Positions 54,048 to 63,328 of a stretch of DNA of 64,000 nt are shown one piece after another. The stretch spans positions 224,001-288,000 of IMG/VR virus record IMGVR_UViG_3300015615_000629. The stretch is one strand, 5' to 3'. How positions within the stretch are numbered: position 1 is the stretch's first letter; every line of letters starts with the position of its first letter. The notes under the pieces are model-generated. The model did not search any database. It was not told the DNA's origin and was given only the letters and a program-made list of their open reading frames with translations. Made by a program: the position numbers and the translations under genes. Source of the DNA: a virus (Duplodnaviria; Heunggongvirae; Uroviricota; Caudoviricetes).

Positions 54048-54248
54048 ATGAAAACTTTCAAAGAGTGGATAAAAGAACAAATGCACATGGGTAGACCACA
54101 CGGACCTATGGGGCCTGATGGCAAAGTTTATGGATGGAGTAGCGGGCCAGTATCCCAAGTTCAAGGAACAAACACTTGGAAGTCAGATGATCGTCAACTA
54201 CCAAAAACCAATTTGCCAAAAGTAAATCCAAAGAGGTCAAAACCTTAA
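54048..54248 (+). CDS. small protein with T4 capsid-targeting-like N-terminus (MKTFKEWIKE)
   Basis: T4-type late promoter TATAAATA at 54032-54039, 8 nt upstream of ATG. Confidence 0.7.
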   Translation: MKTFKEWIKEQMHMGRPHGPMGPDGKVYGWSSGPVSQVQGTNTWKSDDRQLPKTNLPKVNPKRSKP

Positions 54249-55240
54249 ATTTCCTTAGCTAAGTTAGCATAAAGTTCTTTTGGATCGACTTCTGATAAGC
54301 CGCTCATCTGAGCATCATTCACTTCAACAAGTACCCAACCGCCTTCTTCTTTTTCTGCAATATCCAAAACAAAGAAATTCACATGTTTCGATACAATTTT
54401 AGCGACTTCATCGGCGAAGTTAAGACCAACTTCGTCTATTGTTCCTTTGCTTACATCATCAGCATTCGACCAATAATAGCCATGAGCAAGCCGTTTATCA
54501 CCAAGATAGAAGAATCTCCATTCATTGGTTATTGGCAAGTCGTATAGTCCAGTCTCCAAACGCTTTAAAGGAACATATTTTCGGTAAATTACCCCTTGTG
54601 GGCCAATTAGTGAATCATAGGCTAGTTCGATAGCAAGTTCTGATGCTTGCCGTTTAGTTTCGGCAAACATTGATTTATTCCATCTGTGTTTTCTGGAATT
54701 GGTTTTACCTTTTACCACAAATGGGCCAGGATGCTTACACTGATAGAAATTATTGTCATCCCATGACTCGAAAGTATAGTCTTTTAATACTTCGTAATAT
54801 TCGAAATCCGCAATCCAACGATGTTGGTCATAAGAATTTATCAGATAACAATTGTTGGACTCTAAATCTCGTTCCAACTCTTTATAATAAGGTAAAACAG
54901 AATATCGCCCAACCACAAGGTTGTTTTTGCATTCTGTTCGTTTCTTACAGACCGAAAGATGCTTTTCTGCCTCCTGTAGTTCACCCTTAAGGGTTTCTTC
55001 CTCTCGGAAGAGTAGAACTGGATTCGTATATGGCTTTTCCCACTTTTTAGTTAATGCGTCCACGGCATTCCAAGAGTAAGTATAATCTTCAAATGGTCCG
55101 TTGTTTAGAATTGGGTGCTTTTCAAAGGCAGCGAAGTCCCTACCCAAGAAATTCTTGATAACCTCTGTTGGGACTACACTGTAGTTTTTTATGGTAACAA
55201 TATGTGGTTGTATCAATGCCTCGGCTTCGGTTCTATTCAT
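54245..55240 (-). CDS. ATP-grasp ligase (R2K/DUF4343-like clade)
   Basis: PFVVKG..NSRK..W, RKYVPL, NEWRFF, FFVLDIA, VEVNDAQMSGL. Confidence 0.85.
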   Translation of the reverse strand: MNRTEAEALIQPHIVTIKNYSVVPTEVIKNFLGRDFAAFEKHPILNNGPFEDYTYSWNAVDALTKKWEKPYTNPVLLFREEETLKGELQEAEKHLSVCKKRTECKNNLVVGRYSVLPYYKELERDLESNNCYLINSYDQHRWIADFEYYEVLKDYTFESWDDNNFYQCKHPGPFVVKGKTNSRKHRWNKSMFAETKRQASELAIELAYDSLIGPQGVIYRKYVPLKRLETGLYDLPITNEWRFFYLGDKRLAHGYYWSNADDVSKGTIDEVGLNFADEVAKIVSKHVNFFVLDIAEKEEGGWVLVEVNDAQMSGLSEVDPKELYANLAKEI

Positions 55241-55554: not shown

Positions 55555-55885
55555 TGATTACCTTCCATCTAAATTCTGGTGGCGTACACTCACAACACCT
55601 TAGACGCTCTCCACAAGTCTGACAATATCCTTCACAATGCGGGCTCATAACAACATACTTGCCATTCTTGTCTGGCTTAAATTCTACATCCGGAAGCGGT
55701 TTCCCACAATGAGGACAGAAATTAACCGTTGATAATTCCCTGAAATATGTTGCACTATTTGTAAATAAAGCCCGCCAAGTAGGCTTTTCAGACAAATCAC
55801 CATCATAGATGCTATCAGGGCAAACAAGGAAAACGATGCCCTGTTCGGACTCTTCACAGCAATTAGGTGTTACTCTTTTTCTCAT
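55532..55885 (-). CDS. Cys-rich zinc-ribbon protein
   Basis: CC, FCPHCG, YC.TCG..CC.C. Confidence 0.7.
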   Translation of the reverse strand: MRKRVTPNCCEESEQGIVFLVCPDSIYDGDLSEKPTWRALFTNSATYFRELSTVNFCPHCGKPLPDVEFKPDKNGKYVVMSPHCEGYCQTCGERLRCCECTPPEFRWKVINAPSINT

Positions 55886-56520
55886 ATCTGAGTTATTTTC
55901 ATATCCTTAAGAGTAATTGTCCAGTTGTGTTTAACGCCACCCAAATAACTAATGATTTCTTCAGTAGCAACAGTTGTGGTTAATAGGATGACGTTTCGAC
56001 TCATGGGGTTATCACAACCATCTATGCCATTATCTCTAGGAACAACATAAGATTCATCCCAGATGATTTCCCCATAACTACCAGAACCATCCAATCCTAA
56101 ATGTAAACAAGGAATTTTGCTCTTTCTTGTTTCGTCTTGAAGGATTTTTCGGGCAGTCGGATTGTCGAAACAATCAATTACCAAAGAACATTTTCGGATA
56201 AGCTTAGATGCGTTCTCGGCGGTGAGTTGCCGATTTACTGTCTCTATCTCAACGCCAATGTTTCTGAATACTTTGTTCTTAATGGCATCTACTTTAAGAG
56301 CACCAACATCGGTAGTCGCCCATACTTGGGTATTTAGATTATGAATCTCTACCCGATCCATATCGAGAACTTTAATTTTACTAAAGCCTTGGCGGGTAAG
56401 ATTATCTACAAGATTGCTGCCTAATGCCCCGACACCACAGACTAGGATGTCCAGATCGGATATTTTCTTAATCAAATCTTTTCCGCGAAATATTTCTTCG
56501 TGGTGAAATTTACTTCGCAT
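55882..56520 (-). CDS. ThiF/MoeB-family E1-like adenylyltransferase
   Basis: VCGVGALGS, DMDRVE.HNL..Q, K, IDCFDN; candidate catalytic Cys in DGCD. Confidence 0.92.
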   Translation of the reverse strand: MRSKFHHEEIFRGKDLIKKISDLDILVCGVGALGSNLVDNLTRQGFSKIKVLDMDRVEIHNLNTQVWATTDVGALKVDAIKNKVFRNIGVEIETVNRQLTAENASKLIRKCSLVIDCFDNPTARKILQDETRKSKIPCLHLGLDGSGSYGEIIWDESYVVPRDNGIDGCDNPMSRNVILLTTTVATEEIISYLGGVKHNWTITLKDMKITQI

Positions 56521-56692
56521 TTAAGTGCCTTCTGAATCCTTCGACAATCTGCTCATCTGTGTAAGCATCTAAACTAGGCAAGCCATGTTTCTTGCCCATT
56601 TTCTTCATTTTGGTGATAATTCGATGTAATCGCCAACCGTAGTAGTTCGCCATTAGCCAATGGTAATAGTAGGCAATTCTATCCATGAACAT
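56510..56692 (-). CDS. hypothetical protein
   Basis: 60-aa ORF tiling. Confidence 0.55.
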   Translation of the reverse strand: MFMDRIAYYYHWLMANYYGWRLHRIITKMKKMGKKHGLPSLDAYTDEQIVEGFRRHLNAK

Positions 56693-57116
56693 CTGGCAAT
56701 TCCAATTCTTTATAGGTTATTTTTTTGAAATCGAATGTAAAGTGCTTTATACCTGGAATTCGGTAATCTCGCATTGGTTCGCTGTCGATGTCGAGGAATA
56801 AAGCGTCTGCCCCGCCGTCGTGTCTGTTTCCTATAACAACCTCGTTGATTATTTTTGTGGTGTTAAAATCTATACATTGACAGCAGTATTCTCCGTCTTT
56901 TAAATCTACTTCTACTATCTTTCCTTCGTTGACAGATTCGGAACCCATGTCGTTATATGTGAAATTATTCTCGACTACACCTTTTGCAACAAAAGGATAA
57001 GGATAGATTGTCACATCGCCGACAACGACCACGGGCCGCTCAACAGGCTTTATCTTAGTTCCACAACTATCGCAAATTCTCATGCTCGCCTCGCATGATC
57101 GATTAAAATTCCCCAT
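56679..57116 (-). CDS. hypothetical protein with CxxC pairs
   Basis: ICDSCG ... YCCQC. Confidence 0.6.
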   Translation of the reverse strand: MGNFNRSCEASMRICDSCGTKIKPVERPVVVVGDVTIYPYPFVAKGVVENNFTYNDMGSESVNEGKIVEVDLKDGEYCCQCIDFNTTKIINEVVIGNRHDGGADALFLDIDSEPMRDYRIPGIKHFTFDFKKITYKELELPDVHG

Positions 57117-57313
57117 TCTTCATTGCGATATTGATTTCGTTCTCTTAGGCAAGATTCTACATGTTTCAAGTTTAAACTAGAATCTTTGCTGGCAATATTG
57201 ACACCGCATTCTATGGCTTTATCCAGGCTTGGAGTATAATAACATTCTGATACTTCAATAGGGTGGTCCCAAAAGATAAGGCTAATTACAAACATTCTAC
57301 AAATTCTATCCAA
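57080..57313 (-). CDS. hypothetical protein
   Basis: 77-aa ORF tiling. Confidence 0.5.
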   Translation of the reverse strand: MDRICRMFVISLIFWDHPIEVSECYYTPSLDKAIECGVNIASKDSSLNLKHVESCLRERNQYRNEEWGILIDHARRA

Positions 57314-57711
57314 GTTATTGTTATGTTTCTGCTTTTTGCGAAATCGTAAGTTCTTTTGCCTAATTCGTTAAATTCATCCTTGTTTGGCGTTCGACTTAAA
57401 TGAATTGCTAAAGACAAATATGCAGGATATCTAGCCGTTCCCAACGTGGTGTGGTATTTCTTCTCGTATTCATCGCAATTCGACGAAAATGCATCTTCTT
57501 TTACGGGTTCCCCGTTATGGTCTGTGAACCAGCCTTTTGTAGGCCACATTTCGCAGCAACTGGGGAATAAATCATCTTCGTATACCTTCTCATTCACAAA
57601 ATCTGTTGTTATTTCAACCAAATCGTCATTACCTTCCATAACATATGAAGCAAGTTCTTGGTAAAAGTCGCCAACGTAATTCTCGGTATCAATAATTAAA
57701 AGTTTTTTCAT
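57286..57711 (-). CDS. hypothetical phage protein
   Basis: 141-aa ORF, ATGA overlap. Confidence 0.7.
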   Translation of the reverse strand: MKKLLIIDTENYVGDFYQELASYVMEGNDDLVEITTDFVNEKVYEDDLFPSCCEMWPTKGWFTDHNGEPVKEDAFSSNCDEYEKKYHTTLGTARYPAYLSLAIHLSRTPNKDEFNELGKRTYDFAKSRNITITWIEFVECL

Positions 57712-58019
57712 CGATATTTGTCCATGAGTTGGTGAGCACCTTCTGTACCACGCTCTGCTTCAAACGCTTCGAAGGCTTTATTCCATGCTATGCCTCGATT
57801 CTTTAGATGTCTGTCTGCCGCCCTAGTGATCGATGAAAAGGTCATTAAAACAACTGGCTTTAACCTGTTTTTATCTACCTTTTCGAGTATATAATCCACC
57901 TCTTCAAATCTTCCTTCACACAACAAATCGTCAATATTCCCGATTACATCGTGAACGCCCTTACGCTCCAATGTAACATATAATTTTTCAAGCCAATCGT
58001 CTAATTCTTTTACGTTCAT
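57708..58019 (-). CDS. hypothetical protein
   Basis: 103-aa ORF, ATGA overlap. Confidence 0.7.
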   Translation of the reverse strand: MNVKELDDWLEKLYVTLERKGVHDVIGNIDDLLCEGRFEEVDYILEKVDKNRLKPVVLMTFSSITRAADRHLKNRGIAWNKAFEAFEAERGTEGAHQLMDKYR

Positions 58020-58417
58020 GTTTTTCTAATTGAAAAAAATCGATTTCTGAATCCAAAATGTTTTGCTAACACCGGCTCCGAGTGGTCATCTGTATATACC
58101 CAGAAGTTGGTTCCGTCTATACCCCTTATAGCACAAATCAAAGGCTTTCCAAAGCACCCAACCCATCCAAACATTGTCTTTCTGTCTCTGTTACTAGGGC
58201 TTGCATCGCAGTGTGGGTGGGTATGCAAAAACCCCACAACACGGCCCGTTTGTTCTTCTTCAGAAACCAAGGAATCTGCATTGAAACCAACTTCGCTGCT
58301 GGTTCCGAAGTTCAGATAGACAGATTTGGAAAAAGTGAATTCTAACCCTAGAATCCGAATAGTTCGACCAAAAAGTACCCAAAGATGCTCAATTTCTTCA
58401 TCAATCATATCTATCAT
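58016..58417 (-). CDS. JAB/MPN+ (JAMM) metallopeptidase
   Basis: E..., VVGFLHTHP....PS.RD JAMM motif. Confidence 0.88.
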   Translation of the reverse strand: MIDMIDEEIEHLWVLFGRTIRILGLEFTFSKSVYLNFGTSSEVGFNADSLVSEEEQTGRVVGFLHTHPHCDASPSNRDRKTMFGWVGCFGKPLICAIRGIDGTNFWVYTDDHSEPVLAKHFGFRNRFFSIRKT

Positions 58418-59207
58418 GGCTTTCTCGCATGACTGTAACAAGGCTTTGTAGGTCAAAGGTTCTATCCTGTCCAGATAGACAGATTCCAGACGTTTGGACA
58501 TCTAGATTTTTGCTAATAACCGATCTGTGATTGTGTCCATCCACGACATAATCAATAGTATAAGTATCGCCACGCTCAATGTGGCCACGATACTCTGCTC
58601 CCGCACGAGTTAAAGCCAATCTTATTTTTTGTTCTTCTCGACTCTTTTTGGCCGCCTCGTTGGTAGTCCAAGCAAATAGATAAGAATTTCTTTCTGCTTG
58701 AGAGATTCCAGGTAAATTTAACTTGTCTGGTTCTAAATCAGAGGTAAAACTTTCTCTTAAATATTGAGCGTTTTGGAGTGGGACTTTTTCGTAAGACCCT
58801 TCATACCAACAGGTTACACCATCAAATCTGGCTTGAACTACATCAAAAATTTGAACTTCTTCGGCAAAGTGAATAGGGACAATGCCGGAAACTTTGTCCT
58901 GAGTTAATGGAATTCCATACCAAATTTGATCTTCTTGTTTAGCAAGTACAAACCTTACAGGTGGAAATAGATTAAGATATTGGGTTCGTTCGGCCAGAGA
59001 AGGCTGGCGAACAAGAATAGCCTCTTTAAAGTTTCTTGGCGTAAAGACGCCCCAACCAGAGAAGTGATTAGGTTGAGCCACCGACATGGATAAAATTACA
59101 CCATTGATACGGACCCTGATGGGTTTATCCCGAATAACAGGGCTTAAAAAGACAGAATCCTTAAATTCCGTCTCTTGTCGTGCTAATTTTTCAAATAAAT
59201 CTTTCAT
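58401..59207 (-). CDS. conserved protein with C-terminal E2-like GICL motif
   Basis: SGICLSGQDRTFDLQSLV; lies between Ubl/TROVE and JAB/E1. Confidence 0.55.
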   Translation of the reverse strand: MKDLFEKLARQETEFKDSVFLSPVIRDKPIRVRINGVILSMSVAQPNHFSGWGVFTPRNFKEAILVRQPSLAERTQYLNLFPPVRFVLAKQEDQIWYGIPLTQDKVSGIVPIHFAEEVQIFDVVQARFDGVTCWYEGSYEKVPLQNAQYLRESFTSDLEPDKLNLPGISQAERNSYLFAWTTNEAAKKSREEQKIRLALTRAGAEYRGHIERGDTYTIDYVVDGHNHRSVISKNLDVQTSGICLSGQDRTFDLQSLVTVMRESHDRYD

Positions 59208-59554
59208 TCTTGTTCTGCTTTTGTAATTGTTGGCTTAACTTCAATTCCTTTTAAATTTCCATTGCCAGTAAACCATATTTTAACTGGTTGTCCTGTTGGA
59301 ATGACAAGTGGTTCTACAGAATAGAGGGACATAACTCTGCCATCTTCAAACCTTATTTCCCAGTTTGTTCCTCCGTAACCCAATTCTGGGATTACAGAAA
59401 CTTGTTTGATTACTCCTTCAACAGATTGGCTTGTGCTGCCCTTTTTAGCAGAGTTAAAGGCAGTAAATAGCAGAGCGACTAGGATACCAATTATCGCCAA
59501 CGTAATCAGAAGTTCGATAAGTGTAAATGCTTTTTTCATGTTTGATCTTCCCAC
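59204..59554 (-). CDS. prepilin-type N-terminal cleavage/methylation domain protein
   Basis: KKAFTLIELLITLAIIGILVALL. Confidence 0.85.
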   Translation of the reverse strand: MGRSNMKKAFTLIELLITLAIIGILVALLFTAFNSAKKGSTSQSVEGVIKQVSVIPELGYGGTNWEIRFEDGRVMSLYSVEPLVIPTGQPVKIWFTGNGNLKGIEVKPTITKAEQE

Positions 59555-60006
59555 ACATCTGGAATGTATTTTAATTTTTCGCTGCGATTGACATATGATC
59601 GAACGTGGTCTAAATTTTTATAGTCAAATATATCCCAAAATTTAGTATTCCAAAATCTGTCTATTACTGTGTTGCACAATATTTTTTGATCTCTAAAACA
59701 AGGCCCCACATTAAGACATGTCAAACCGTTAGAACTTATATTTGGCAGCAATAATCCAAAGCCGCAGGCGTCAGTTAAATAGCAATATCTATATACAAAT
59801 AAATTTTGATGCGAAAGTTTTGTATAAAATATTGCAAATCTAATATTTGGAAACTTTAGACTAACTACCCTGTCAATAAACAAAGCTGGTCGGAGAGGTG
59901 AAGCAGTAAGCAGCAGCGTGCGAAAACCACTAGGTTGATCAATCTCTGCCTTATGCCAAACTCCATATGTGTCCCAATCTATTTGTGGGCTTTTAAAAAA
60001 ACGCAT
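59536..60006 (-). CDS. prokaryotic E2-like protein (Prok-E2 B/D-type candidate)
   Basis: LPNISSNGLTCL and FWNTKF resemble the PN...G..C..FW.S.F core. Confidence 0.55.
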   Translation of the reverse strand: MRFFKSPQIDWDTYGVWHKAEIDQPSGFRTLLLTASPLRPALFIDRVVSLKFPNIRFAIFYTKLSHQNLFVYRYCYLTDACGFGLLLPNISSNGLTCLNVGPCFRDQKILCNTVIDRFWNTKFWDIFDYKNLDHVRSYVNRSEKLKYIPDVWEDQT

Positions 60007-60022
60007 TTTCACGCGGTCCAAC

Positions 60023-60047
60023 AAAAAAGGGAGGGCTAAACCCTCCC
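60023..60047 (-). terminator. intrinsic terminator
   Basis: gggaggg-tttag-ccctccc followed by U6 on minus strand. Confidence 0.7.
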
Positions 60048-60075
60048 ATCATAGCACAATTTTTTCGATGTTCAA

Positions 60076-60258
60076 CTACTTATAATCGGCGATAATTTCG
60101 GTCATTGCCCTTTCGCAGGCTTCTAGCTCTTCTGGTTCAGATAATGCATTGTTTAAATAAAGATCAACAAGTTCTTCTAAATCGTCTAGATCATCAATAT
60201 CGTTAATTTTTTGATACTGACTTTTCAAAAGTTTTAATGCGGAAATGAAGTCGTTCAT
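60076..60258 (-). CDS. small acidic protein
   Basis: 60-aa ORF, ATGA overlap. Confidence 0.6.
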   Translation of the reverse strand: MNDFISALKLLKSQYQKINDIDDLDDLEELVDLYLNNALSEPEELEACERAMTEIIADYK

Positions 60259-60503
60259 TTGACGTTCTTTTGCTGTTCTTCGGCCTTTGGTTCTGGAACG
60301 AAGTAATCGCCTTTATTTATCTGATTATAGATTTGCTCAGAAACTTGAAATTGGTATGCAGGTGCTTTGATTACTACGTAATAATCCACTACCAAATTCC
60401 CATTTGTTTCTCGAAGCTTTCTGTACTTTTCTATAATCTCCCCTTCGGTTGGAGGGGCACAACCAACCAGAAAAAGTGCAATTAAAATGAGTAATTTACG
60501 CAT
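60255..60503 (-). CDS. putative lipoprotein
   Basis: Lipobox LVGC after hydrophobic leader. Confidence 0.7.
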   Translation of the reverse strand: MRKLLILIALFLVGCAPPTEGEIIEKYRKLRETNGNLVVDYYVVIKAPAYQFQVSEQIYNQINKGDYFVPEPKAEEQQKNVK

Positions 60504-62195
<1,692 letters not shown>

Positions 62196-62201
62196 CTCTT
62201 A

Positions 62202-62346
62202 AAAAACACTACTTCATCTGAGTCGCACTAGCAGTTTTGATAAACAACTAGGAATCGAACCTAGTCTTCAACCTCTGAAGGGTTGCGTCCTACCAACGGA
62301 CACTTGTTTGTAATGCTGTTGCAGTTGGAGACGTAGTAGTATTTTT
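62202..62346 (-). ncRNA. Y-RNA-like unit B containing tRNA cloverleaf (anticodon UCA)
   Basis: 18-bp terminal stem with G-U pairs on minus strand; same motifs; D arm gtcc/ggac, caacc-CUUCAGA-ggttg, T arm ctagg-TTCGATT-cctag (62242-62309); no CCA. Confidence 0.8.
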
Positions 62347-62355
62347 CCTCGTGTA

Positions 62356-62565
62356 TTAACCGAACACGGCTTCCGGACGAACCGTAATGTCACCCGTTGC
62401 CCGGTTGCGTTCAACGTGCATGTAACTCAACTTGCCCGACTCCAAATTTAAATGAGCCGTGACAGCCGACAAAATCTGTTCGTCAGACGAAACTTCGCCA
62501 ATATCAAGCAAGTTCTGCTCGACATCGTAACTTCGTCCGTCGTATCGAATGTGTAGTTGAGCCAT
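62356..62565 (-). CDS. ubiquitin-like (beta-grasp) protein with C-terminal Gly
   Basis: 69 aa, beta-beta-alpha-beta-beta pattern, ends ITVRPEAVFG; SD AAGGGG; E1/JAB nearby. Confidence 0.7.
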   Translation of the reverse strand: MAQLHIRYDGRSYDVEQNLLDIGEVSSDEQILSAVTAHLNLESGKLSYMHVERNRATGDITVRPEAVFG

Positions 62566-62588
62566 TTTAGTTTACCCCTTGTAAAAAA

Positions 62589-62698
62589 GACTTCGGTATC
62601 TGAGTCCTAGCAGCGTTGTCTTTGGGGCTTCACGCCCCGCAGACGGTCAAAACTTTGCAAGTGTTTGTAATGCTGTTAGCGTTGGAGACACCTGAGTC
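62589..62698 (-). ncRNA. Y-RNA-like unit C
   Basis: Terminal stem gactcaggtgtct/agataccgaagtc; CCAAC-N11-TACAAACA and GACTC motifs; inner ggggc/gcccc hairpin. Confidence 0.7.
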
Positions 62699-62700
62699 AA

Positions 62701-62831
62701 GGCGGGAGATGCTGGATTCGAACCAACTATTTCGGTTTTCAGTCGAAACGTTACCTTGTTTGTAGAGTTCTGTCAGTTGGCGACGGTAAAACCATCGAAG
62801 TCGAAAAAACCTGACTTTTTTAAATCTCCCG
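62701..62831 (-). tRNA. tRNA-Phe(GAA)-like RNA with large insertion replacing the D arm (unit D)
   Basis: Acceptor gggagat/atctccc, T arm gttgg-TTCGAAT-ccagc, anticodon loop CUGAAAA; insert contains CCAAC-N11-TACAAACA. Confidence 0.65.
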
Positions 62832-62859
62832 AATGACAACCATTGGTTGCCACTCCCCT

Positions 62860-62887
62860 AATCTACCGCAGTTTTTTCGTTTGTCAA
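62860..62887 (-). promoter_or_regulatory. sigma70-type promoter of RNA array/Ubl unit
   Basis: TTGACA-16-TAGATT; predicted transcript begins with 11-bp hairpin gagtggcaacc/ggttgtcattc (62831-62855). Confidence 0.7.
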
Positions 62888-62896
62888 CCAACTTTT

Positions 62897-63328
62897 TCAA
62901 GATTTTTTGTTTTTGCCAAAATTTTCGCAAAAACCCGCCAAAGTGCTGCCAATATTCCGATAGTAACGCTTGATTTCAGCGATCTCAAATTCCTGATTTC
63001 TAAAAGAATCCAGACTGACACCATTGGAAGAATGCACAAATCGGGTAATCTTGTCACCCTTGAAACATAAAACGCCTGCATCGTTTCTTAATAAAGGGTG
63101 AAATTTGGATTCCGAATCCAGAGAATTCCATAATTCTAGTTCTTTTTCAGTTGGTTTCAAGTCTTCAATTTCAAATCCATCAATTCCTGGGCTTCCCATA
63201 ATATACTTTTTTCCCTTAAATTCAATAATATGCTTTCTGCTTGGATGTCGCATGGCTTCCCTGATTTGCCTGCGTGCATCAGGGTCAGACATCATTTTTC
63301 GAAATCTATCACTAAGTAATACTTCCAT
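62897..63328 (-). CDS. hypothetical protein
   Basis: 143-aa ORF. Confidence 0.65.
   Translation of the reverse strand: MEVLLSDRFRKMMSDPDARRQIREAMRHPSRKHIIEFKGKKYIMGSPGIDGFEIEDLKPTEKELELWNSLDSESKFHPLLRNDAGVLCFKGDKITRFVHSSNGVSLDSFRNQEFEIAEIKRYYRNIGSTLAGFCENFGKNKKS

Follow-up and report, generated by a model that had tools for sequence, protein, structure and literature searches.

Does a Ro60-like RNA-protein particle work together with a ubiquitin-like protein modification pathway? The question is raised by a locus at positions 55882-62887 of a 64,000-nucleotide stretch of viral DNA (hereafter the window), which corresponds to bases 224001-288000 of the IMG/VR record IMGVR_UViG_3300015615_000629. 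This record is 572,167 bp long, has direct terminal repeats and is rated complete, and its source is therefore a huge phage. The genes around the locus are almost all found on the minus strand. Reading that strand from position 62900 downwards, a promoter-like site is followed by RNA units D and C, the gene of a ubiquitin-like protein (Ubl), RNA units B and A, a transcription terminator and a Ro60-like TROVE/vWA gene. Two small genes, a second terminator, the open reading frame (ORF) 60006-59536, a gene for a prepilin-motif protein, a gene coding a protein with two OB folds and an invariant cysteine (OB-Cys), a JAMM/JAB metallopeptidase gene, five small ORFs and a ThiF-type activating enzyme (E1) gene complete the series. 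An initial annotation made from the sequence had named the main parts and proposed that RNA scaffolds and protein tagging are co-expressed. The promoter-like site, the four RNAs, the Ubl, TROVE/vWA, JAMM and E1 genes and the first terminator are found where it placed them, while only one of its two candidates for a conjugating enzyme (E2) could be retained. As judged from gene content and order in many genomes, the coupling of a Ro60-like protein, Y-like RNAs and a Ubl/E1/JAB set is real at the genomic level. We lean, on balance, towards the view that this cassette, conserved in bacteria and phages, couples a Ro60-like ribonucleoprotein to a module for Ubl activation and transfer.

Conservation of the cassette in phages and bacteria

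The linkage was followed in 13 viral contigs that carry the TROVE family with sufficient flanking sequence and in 72 bacterial loci that hold an OB-Cys gene. The latter belong mostly to filamentous Cyanobacteriota, the rest being from Planctomycetota, Acidobacteriota, Myxococcota, Chlorobiota/Bacteroidota and Armatimonadota. The genes for TROVE, OB-Cys, JAB and E1 follow each other in that order in all 13 viral contigs and are colinear in the three closest relatives; upstream of TROVE, a Ubl gene was also detected in 11 of the 13. The set proposed by the initial annotation thus recurs beyond the window, and it does so in several bacterial phyla as well: an E1 gene adjoins OB-Cys in 53 of the 72 bacterial loci, TROVE lies at most 10 kb upstream in 30, and a Ubl gene precedes TROVE in 22. 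The Ubl gene is always on the side of TROVE and the RNAs and the E1 gene on the opposite side. Genomes without TROVE near the OB-Cys locus encode this TROVE family elsewhere (five out of five), and one of the five contains a further copy of OB-Cys, situated 2.5 kb from TROVE. A phyletic profile of 201 evenly sampled cyanobacterial genomes identified 19 with both TROVE and OB-Cys, one with TROVE only (a partial match), none with OB-Cys only and 181 with neither (Fisher p = 1e-25, uncorrected for relatedness).

In a quick, unrooted phylogenetic tree of OB-Cys, the four phage copies form one clade (support 97) that is sister to four copies from contigs of Planctomycetota metagenome-assembled genomes (MAGs; support 100). 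Within the limits of an unrooted tree, this position fits a planctomycete host or donor. These eight sequences are exactly the copies of the tree that are accompanied by a JAB gene, and in each case the encoded JAMM peptidase resembles desampylase. Cyanobacterial loci often feature other genes between TROVE and OB-Cys, namely those of the RNA 2'-phosphotransferase Tpt1/KptA (18 loci) and of a classical AAA ATPase (15 loci), L023 (7949-9805) being an example for both, and one Chlorobiota locus appears from its sequence to hold an RtcB gene. The AAA ATPase is FtsH/PAN/Cdc48-like, and an unfoldase beside a Ubl system recalls the Pup-Mpa and SAMP-PAN pairs.

A family of Y-like RNAs encoded upstream of the TROVE gene

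The four RNA units of the window share the 5' boxes GUCKCCAAC-N11-UACAAAC and the 3' box GACUCAGRY, and two of them have a tRNA-like head. In unit D (62690-62831, minus strand) the 5' box is GUCGCCAAC-N11-UACAAAC and the 3' box GACUCAGGU; an anticodon-like hairpin and a T arm (GUUGG-UUCGAAU-CCAGC) are also present, and CGGGAGAU and AUCUCCCG offer an alternative outer pairing. Unit C (62595-62692, minus strand) has the shared boxes, a closing stem (GGUGUCU/AGAUACC) and a GC hairpin at its apex, without a tRNA-like head; its minimum free energy (MFE) of -33.8 kcal/mol (z = -3.15) was equalled by none of 200 shuffled sequences. Unit B (62208-62340, minus strand) has a basal stem that leads through an internal loop to a second stem and then to a full cloverleaf at 62310-62240, which scores 45.3 bits against the Rfam tRNA model and has the anticodon UCA. 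No CCA is encoded, and the 5' strand of the acceptor stem is formed by the UACAAAC box. Unit A (62075-62195, minus strand) is closed by a 20-bp stem, carries the shared boxes and internal loop, and is capped by a small hairpin whose 7-nt loop reads CUCAUAA (MFE -42.3 kcal/mol, z = -6.71 relative to shuffled sequence). The Ubl gene sits between units C and B, inside the array as initially annotated, and in relatives it is likewise found in the array or just before it.

A covariance model (R1) was built from 31 units of the single-cloverleaf type found in 22 loci, mostly from other genomes. Its consensus comprises the basal stem, the internal loop, the second stem and the D, anticodon and T arms. 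Compensatory changes are present in 25 of the 30 base pairs of the 31-unit alignment, and none of 500 shuffles reached the observed values. Pairing is preserved in 94.9% of the paired cells, compared to 77% in column shuffles and 38-48% when the partners are slid. Unit B, which is part of the seed, scores 80.5 bits, and two units that are outside the seed are also recognised, unit A with 38 bits (E = 1e-8) and unit D, at 62792-62673, with 23.5 bits (E = 6e-5). Across the whole 572-kb genome genuine full-length matches occur only at the window array. A full-length match at 114.8 kb was rejected because it is an ordinary tRNA array, and partial matches correspond to ordinary tRNA genes; these partial matches, limited to the tRNA core, also exposed dense tRNA gene arrays in the phage genome (G000:C1, ~113-117 kb and ~337-342 kb). 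Ten of the 12 viral loci searched are not represented in the seed, and nine of these ten have full-length R1 copies on the TROVE strand, mostly at most 2 kb upstream of TROVE. No copy was found in the locus L110, where only ~1.4 kb of upstream flank is available. The RNA architecture is repeated upstream of TROVE in related phages and bacteria, in the latter between Ubl and TROVE, with the boxes GYGCCCYAAY ... AGCUUACAUAC ... GCUUUC-AACUUGCRC.

No Rfam Y RNA family matched positions 61900-63100 (cmscan, E up to 10), a search that returned only tRNA and chance-level matches. The Ro-binding box GNCGAAN0-1G (or GGUCCGA) is absent near the 5' end, its place being taken by GUCKCCAAC in the phages and GYGCCCYAAY in bacteria. 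The units form a real RNA family that is Y-RNA-like in design. Because they do not have the GNCGAAN0-1G box (PMC4201824), they fall outside the described YrlA and Y RNA families. The anticodon loop of the enclosed cloverleaf varies among orthologous units: it is UCA in the window (62240-62310), CCA and UAG in two related phages (L009, 3799-3932; L010, 4569-4703), and other triplets are found in cyanobacteria. This lack of conservation argues for mimicry or a decoy panel over one decoding function.

A divergent Ro60-like protein

The gene at 60504-62009 (minus strand), whose probable initiation codon is ATG 62009 preceded by AAGGAAAA, codes a putative Ro60-like protein with a TROVE region and a vWA domain. 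Its match to Pfam vWA_Ro60 (8.6e-5, 23 bits) is below the family cut-off of 27.7, the NCBIfam Rsr model gives 14.8 bits relative to a cut-off of 900, and no match to the Pfam TROVE domain was found. The protein is recognised by phrog_850, described as 'RNA-binding protein' (1.2e-7), and its PDB match is Ro60 of phage phiLo (9KOP, 9L5Y; 2e-5). A profile of 24 homologues retrieved the same two phiLo structures at 2.1e-5 over positions 164-396, as well as Deinococcus Rsr (2nvo) at 8e-3. The MIDAS (metal ion-dependent adhesion site) of the vWA domain (DKSGS...T...D) is intact, with D326, S328, S330 and D412 invariant among the 24 homologues and T388 nearly so. Two variations on the organisation of the TROVE gene were observed. 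In a Myxococcota MAG (L080, 5960-9958), a further vWA-like ORF is bracketed by two paralogous TROVE genes, each of which is preceded by a Y-like RNA, and in a related huge phage (L003, 10116-10589) a gene for ribosome recycling factor (RRF 1.1e-23) is found just downstream of TROVE.

The ubiquitin-like protein, its putative activating enzyme and the JAMM peptidase

The Ubl gene (62356-62565, minus strand) is preceded by an AAGGGG ribosome-binding site and codes 69 amino acids ending in RPEAVFG, immediately followed by the stop codon. This C-terminus, noted in the initial annotation, takes the form RPEAV[YFW]G directly before the stop in all 25 Ubl homologues, so that the terminal glycine is free and invariant. 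Structure prediction, which was carried out for this protein and for OB-Cys, gave a beta-grasp fold, in agreement with the initial expectation. A search for homologous proteins with the Ubl sequence retrieved one relative only.

The E1 gene (55882-56520, minus strand) codes a minimal, stand-alone adenylating enzyme of 212 amino acids. The assignment made initially is borne out by its match to ThiF (3.7e-32; 111.8 bits with a cut-off of 28.1), and the closest named families are ThiF and MoeB. Among 56 homologues, conservation is at least 95% for the motifs GxGAxG, DxDR and DxFDN as well as for C138 and C169-D-x-P. The phage genome has a second ThiF-like stretch beyond the window (G000:C1, 141583-142101), which is broken by one TAG and one TAA codon and may be a decayed second E1 gene.

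The JAMM/JAB metallopeptidase, also recognised from the start, is encoded at 58016-58501 (minus strand). Its likely initiation codon is ATG 58417 or 58408, abutting the stop codon of OB-Cys, because the conserved part begins near residue 38. It matches Prok-JAB above the cut-off (2.1e-7, 31.3 bits; cut-off 25) and its best named match is an archaeal desampylase (1.7e-5). The motif E...HxH-x7-S-xx-D is intact, and its residues (E38, H93-T-H95-P, S103, D106) are conserved in all eight sequences. In PADLOC the E1 is matched by the 'E1-E2' model and the JAMM protein by 'JAB' models, while scores with NCBIfam 6A-MBL cap2_3 and PRTRC ThiF are far below the cut-offs. The JAB protein of a related 373-kb phage (L009, 11262-11954) has a C-terminal extension of ~100 amino acids with a weak KOW-motif match, which is absent from the JAB protein of the window.

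OB-Cys as a candidate carrier

The initial annotation listed two cysteine-bearing E2-like candidates. The ORF at 59536-60006 (minus strand, 157 codons) was discarded: it has no match in Pfam, PHROGs, PADLOC or NCBIfam and is outside the conserved set, tblastn having found no counterpart in the related phage loci searched or in the 72 bacterial loci. The other, OB-Cys (58401-59207, minus strand), is a 268-amino-acid protein with two N-terminal OB barrels, a long helix, a four-strand meander, Cys243 in the sequence SAGICLSGxD and a terminal helix. Its family comprises 934 representatives at 50% identity, 293 of them with E below 1e-30, and has no name in public sources; no sequence match was found for the protein in Pfam, NCBIfam, PADLOC or PDB. 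The only invariant columns among 98 diverse members are G241 and C243. In the AlphaFold2 (AF2) model (predicted local distance difference test score, pLDDT, 96) residues ~20-140 form two OB-fold barrels that are like S1, cold-shock and RNase R domains and, equally, like the double OB of Mpa/PAN, and the modelled C-terminal domain gives hints of a resemblance to E2/UEV/RWD folds. None of the 98 members matched the UQ_con or Prok-E2 families at E up to 1, the PADLOC E2 models gave no match, and hhalign comparison with one Cap2 E2 domain returned a probability of 0.3%. Just two Cap2 E2 sequences were found across the 201 cyanobacterial genomes. OB-Cys is therefore regarded as a candidate for an E2-like carrier, not as an E2.

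Relation to known systems

Ro60/Rsr proteins and their Y RNAs are known from Deinococcus (Rsr-Yrn1-PNPase), Salmonella (rsr-yrlBA-rtcBA) and M. smegmatis (YrlA/YrlB) (PMC4201824), and the Thermus phage phiLo encodes a Ro60 with Yrl1/Yrl2 (PMC12135203; PDB 9KOP, 9L5Y). Association of phage and bacterial Ro60 with Y RNAs is therefore not new in itself (PMC4201824, PMC12135203, PMC7824862). Like these systems, phage-encoded examples included, the locus studied here combines a TROVE/vWA-like protein with genes of small structured RNAs that lie closely upstream on its strand. Further common points are the closing stem and conserved internal loop of the RNAs, some of which have a tRNA-like domain, and the RNA-repair neighbourhood of the bacterial versions (RtcB there; Tpt1, and once RtcB, here). 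The locus differs in that its protein is very divergent, as reflected by the Rsr score and the lack of a Pfam TROVE match given above, in that GUCKCC or GYGCCC replaces GNCGAAN0-1G, and in that the tRNA-like head joins its carrier via the acceptor stem. To our knowledge, no described Ro60 system includes a Ubl, E1, JAB or OB-Cys protein.

Bacterial operons with Ubl, E1, E2 and JAB genes have been described as Bil (type 6d of Iyer, Burroughs and Aravind 2006, PMC1779556; PMC10557695), Bub (type 6e; PMC11601596) and, in cyclic oligonucleotide-based antiphage signalling systems (CBASS), as Cap2/Cap3 (PMC10097602). The cassette shares with them a small predicted beta-grasp protein with a terminal glycine, a ThiF-type E1, a JAB protein and a carrier candidate with a conserved cysteine. 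Unlike in these operons, the carrier candidate of the window has two OB folds as part of its chain, the E1 of 212 amino acids stands alone, the partner is an RNA-protein particle and not a cyclase or other immune effector, and the cassette is also phage-borne. The Ubl, the carrier candidate and the TROVE protein match no PADLOC model, and the first two match no Pfam model of those systems either; only the generic parts, E1 and JAB, are recognised by PADLOC. Ubl systems that are E2-independent are a further relative, namely archaeal SAMP/UbaA/HvJAMM1 (PMC4443979) and Thermus TtuB/TtuC. The minimal MoeB/ThiF-like E1, the desampylase-like JAMM and a possible dual role in conjugation and tRNA sulfur chemistry are reminiscent of them. 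However, SAMP and TtuB end in GG and are connected with sulfur metabolism, whereas the Ubl of the window ends in an aromatic residue and glycine, a partner with an invariant cysteine is present in every case and no genes for sulfur transfer were seen in the neighbourhood.

Among animal proteins, the ubiquitin-pathway enzyme Ro52/TRIM21 has historically been linked to particles of Ro60 and Y RNA; it is a RING ubiquitin ligase (E3), the association is indirect and there is no homology to the cassette. A full-text search, whose coverage leaves an earlier description possible, found no literature linking Ro60 and Y-like RNAs to Ubl chemistry. A preprint on Asgard viruses reports one virus that has E1-like genes as well as a gene for Ro60, and leaves them unconnected. 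The coupling of RNA surveillance with protein tagging is thus described in no paper that we found.

Proposed function and alternative explanations

By analogy with Ro60 and Y RNAs, the TROVE ring would bind the conserved stem and loop of the RNAs, leaving the tRNA-like heads to mimic tRNAs or to recruit tRNA-handling enzymes or nucleases. The E1 would adenylate the terminal glycine of the Ubl and hand the Ubl to Cys243 of OB-Cys, and the OB folds might keep OB-Cys on the RNA or on the particle. The Ubl could then be attached to a protein of the particle or near it, the Ro60-like protein itself being a candidate, and the JAMM peptidase would be expected to undo the attachment. The ideas of the initial annotation on this point, a tagged particle or one that steers the tagging of host factors, are speculative. 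The presence of Tpt1, the AAA ATPase and, once, RtcB near bacterial cassettes suggests a link with RNA damage or repair. The phage set may then serve, while infection proceeds, to shield tRNA-like RNAs, for instance from tRNA-cutting nucleases of the host, or to put them to new use. It is conceivable, if unlikely, that OB-Cys is an RNA-guided or RNA-directed Ubl ligase, in which the Ro60-like particle and the tRNA-mimic RNAs would pick the substrate or the Ubl would be joined to an RNA end.

Several observations weigh against a functional coupling of the two modules. The sequence scores of the TROVE assignment are weak, though consistent, and vWA_Ro60 remains below its cut-off. JAB was not detected in the cyanobacterial loci, and neither RtcB nor Tpt1 was found in this phage. 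The co-expression proposed initially is only in part compatible with the organisation of the window. The Ubl gene does lie in the RNA array and all parts are on the same strand, but no uninterrupted operon is found. An intrinsic terminator (AAACCGCC-UUUC-GGGCGGUUUUUU, 62044-62066, minus strand), made of a hairpin and a U tract, is located ~35 nt before the TROVE start codon, and a strong one (GGGAGGG-TTTAG-CCCTCCC followed by T6; 60029-60047, minus strand) closes the TROVE block. Together with ~2.8 kb of unrelated small genes, these two terminators divide the set into three co-directional blocks, so that its co-expression stays a proposal.

The same interruptions are what would be expected if the modules were functionally independent and travelled together through shared descent or a shared genomic island, and in some cyanobacteria the OB-Cys/E1 pair and TROVE are indeed megabases apart. 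We nevertheless regard such co-travel as very unlikely, since gene order and co-occurrence are conserved in Cyanobacteriota, Planctomycetota, Acidobacteriota, Myxococcota, Chlorobiota/Bacteroidota and huge phages, the phyletic match is near-perfect (19/19) and TROVE and the RNAs always have the Ubl gene on their side, its E1 being on the other. A functional link could also be of a different chemical nature. The Ubl might be a TtuB/Urm1-like sulfur carrier, thiocarboxylated via the E1, from which OB-Cys, with its cysteine and OB folds, would thiolate the tRNA-like RNAs or cellular tRNAs. A minimal E1 whose nearest named families are ThiF and MoeB, the failure to recognise an E2 by sequence, OB folds of S1, cold-shock and RNase R type suggestive of RNA binding, the T arms of the RNAs and the undetected JAB of the cyanobacterial versions would all suit such a relay. 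It is rendered doubtful by the [YFW]G end of the Ubl, which is not GG, by the desampylase-like JAMM in every phage and planctomycete copy, by the apparent resemblance of the OB-Cys C-terminal domain to E2/UEV/RWD folds, and by annotated conserved neighbour families among which no rhodanese, cysteine desulfurase or PP-loop thiolase is found; we hold it to be unlikely. Less probable still is that the Ubl is joined to RNA, with OB-Cys binding either a Y-like RNA or a 3' end of tRNA-like form and moving the activated glycine carboxylate to a ribose hydroxyl in a reaction resembling aminoacylation. The fusion of the carrier candidate to two OB folds of nucleic-acid type, the embedding of the Ubl gene in the RNA array and the acceptor-like stems are in line with this idea, and oxyester chemistry has been shown for bacterial Bub pathways (PMC11601596). 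The proposal is, however, inferential throughout; no CCA is encoded, the carrier stem closes off the acceptor stems, and an equally good match is given by OB folds of Mpa/PAN type, which do not bind RNA.

If the Ro60-like particle and the Ubl module indeed function as a single machine, it would be the first prokaryotic case of an RNA particle united with Ubl conjugation, with roles in RNA-damage responses of bacteria and in infection by huge phages, which would carry the whole set. Prokaryotic Ubl pathways, beyond those already known from antiphage systems, would then also involve an RNA-protein particle. What bacterial Ro60 does is still little understood, and the cassette supplies concrete partners for its study: a modifier of 69 amino acids, a 212-amino-acid E1, one invariant cysteine and defined RNAs. 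A parallel to the old, unexplained association of Ro52/TRIM21 with Ro60 in animals is possible.

Other features of the locus

The promoter-like site ahead of the RNA array (62860-62887, minus strand) matches the sigma-70 consensus (TTGACA, 16 nt, TAGATT). It is a consensus match only, and such sites occur about as often as in shuffled sequence (21 found relative to 17.3 expected). Downstream of TROVE are a small lipoprotein-like gene (60255-60503, minus strand) and a second small gene (60076-60258, minus strand). Between the TROVE block and OB-Cys, the minus-strand gene at 59204-59554 codes a 116-amino-acid protein whose N-terminus has a methylation motif of the prepilin type (N_methyl, 6.7e-8). 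Because such motifs are abundant in Planctomycetota, this protein fits the hint to a host of that phylum given by the OB-Cys tree. Three genes downstream of the E1 gene, a 331-amino-acid protein (54245-55240, minus strand) that is not conserved beside the cassette in relatives has an ATP-grasp domain of the R2K clade (Pfam R2K_3, 2.5e-24), a clade predicted to add amino-acid or peptide tags.

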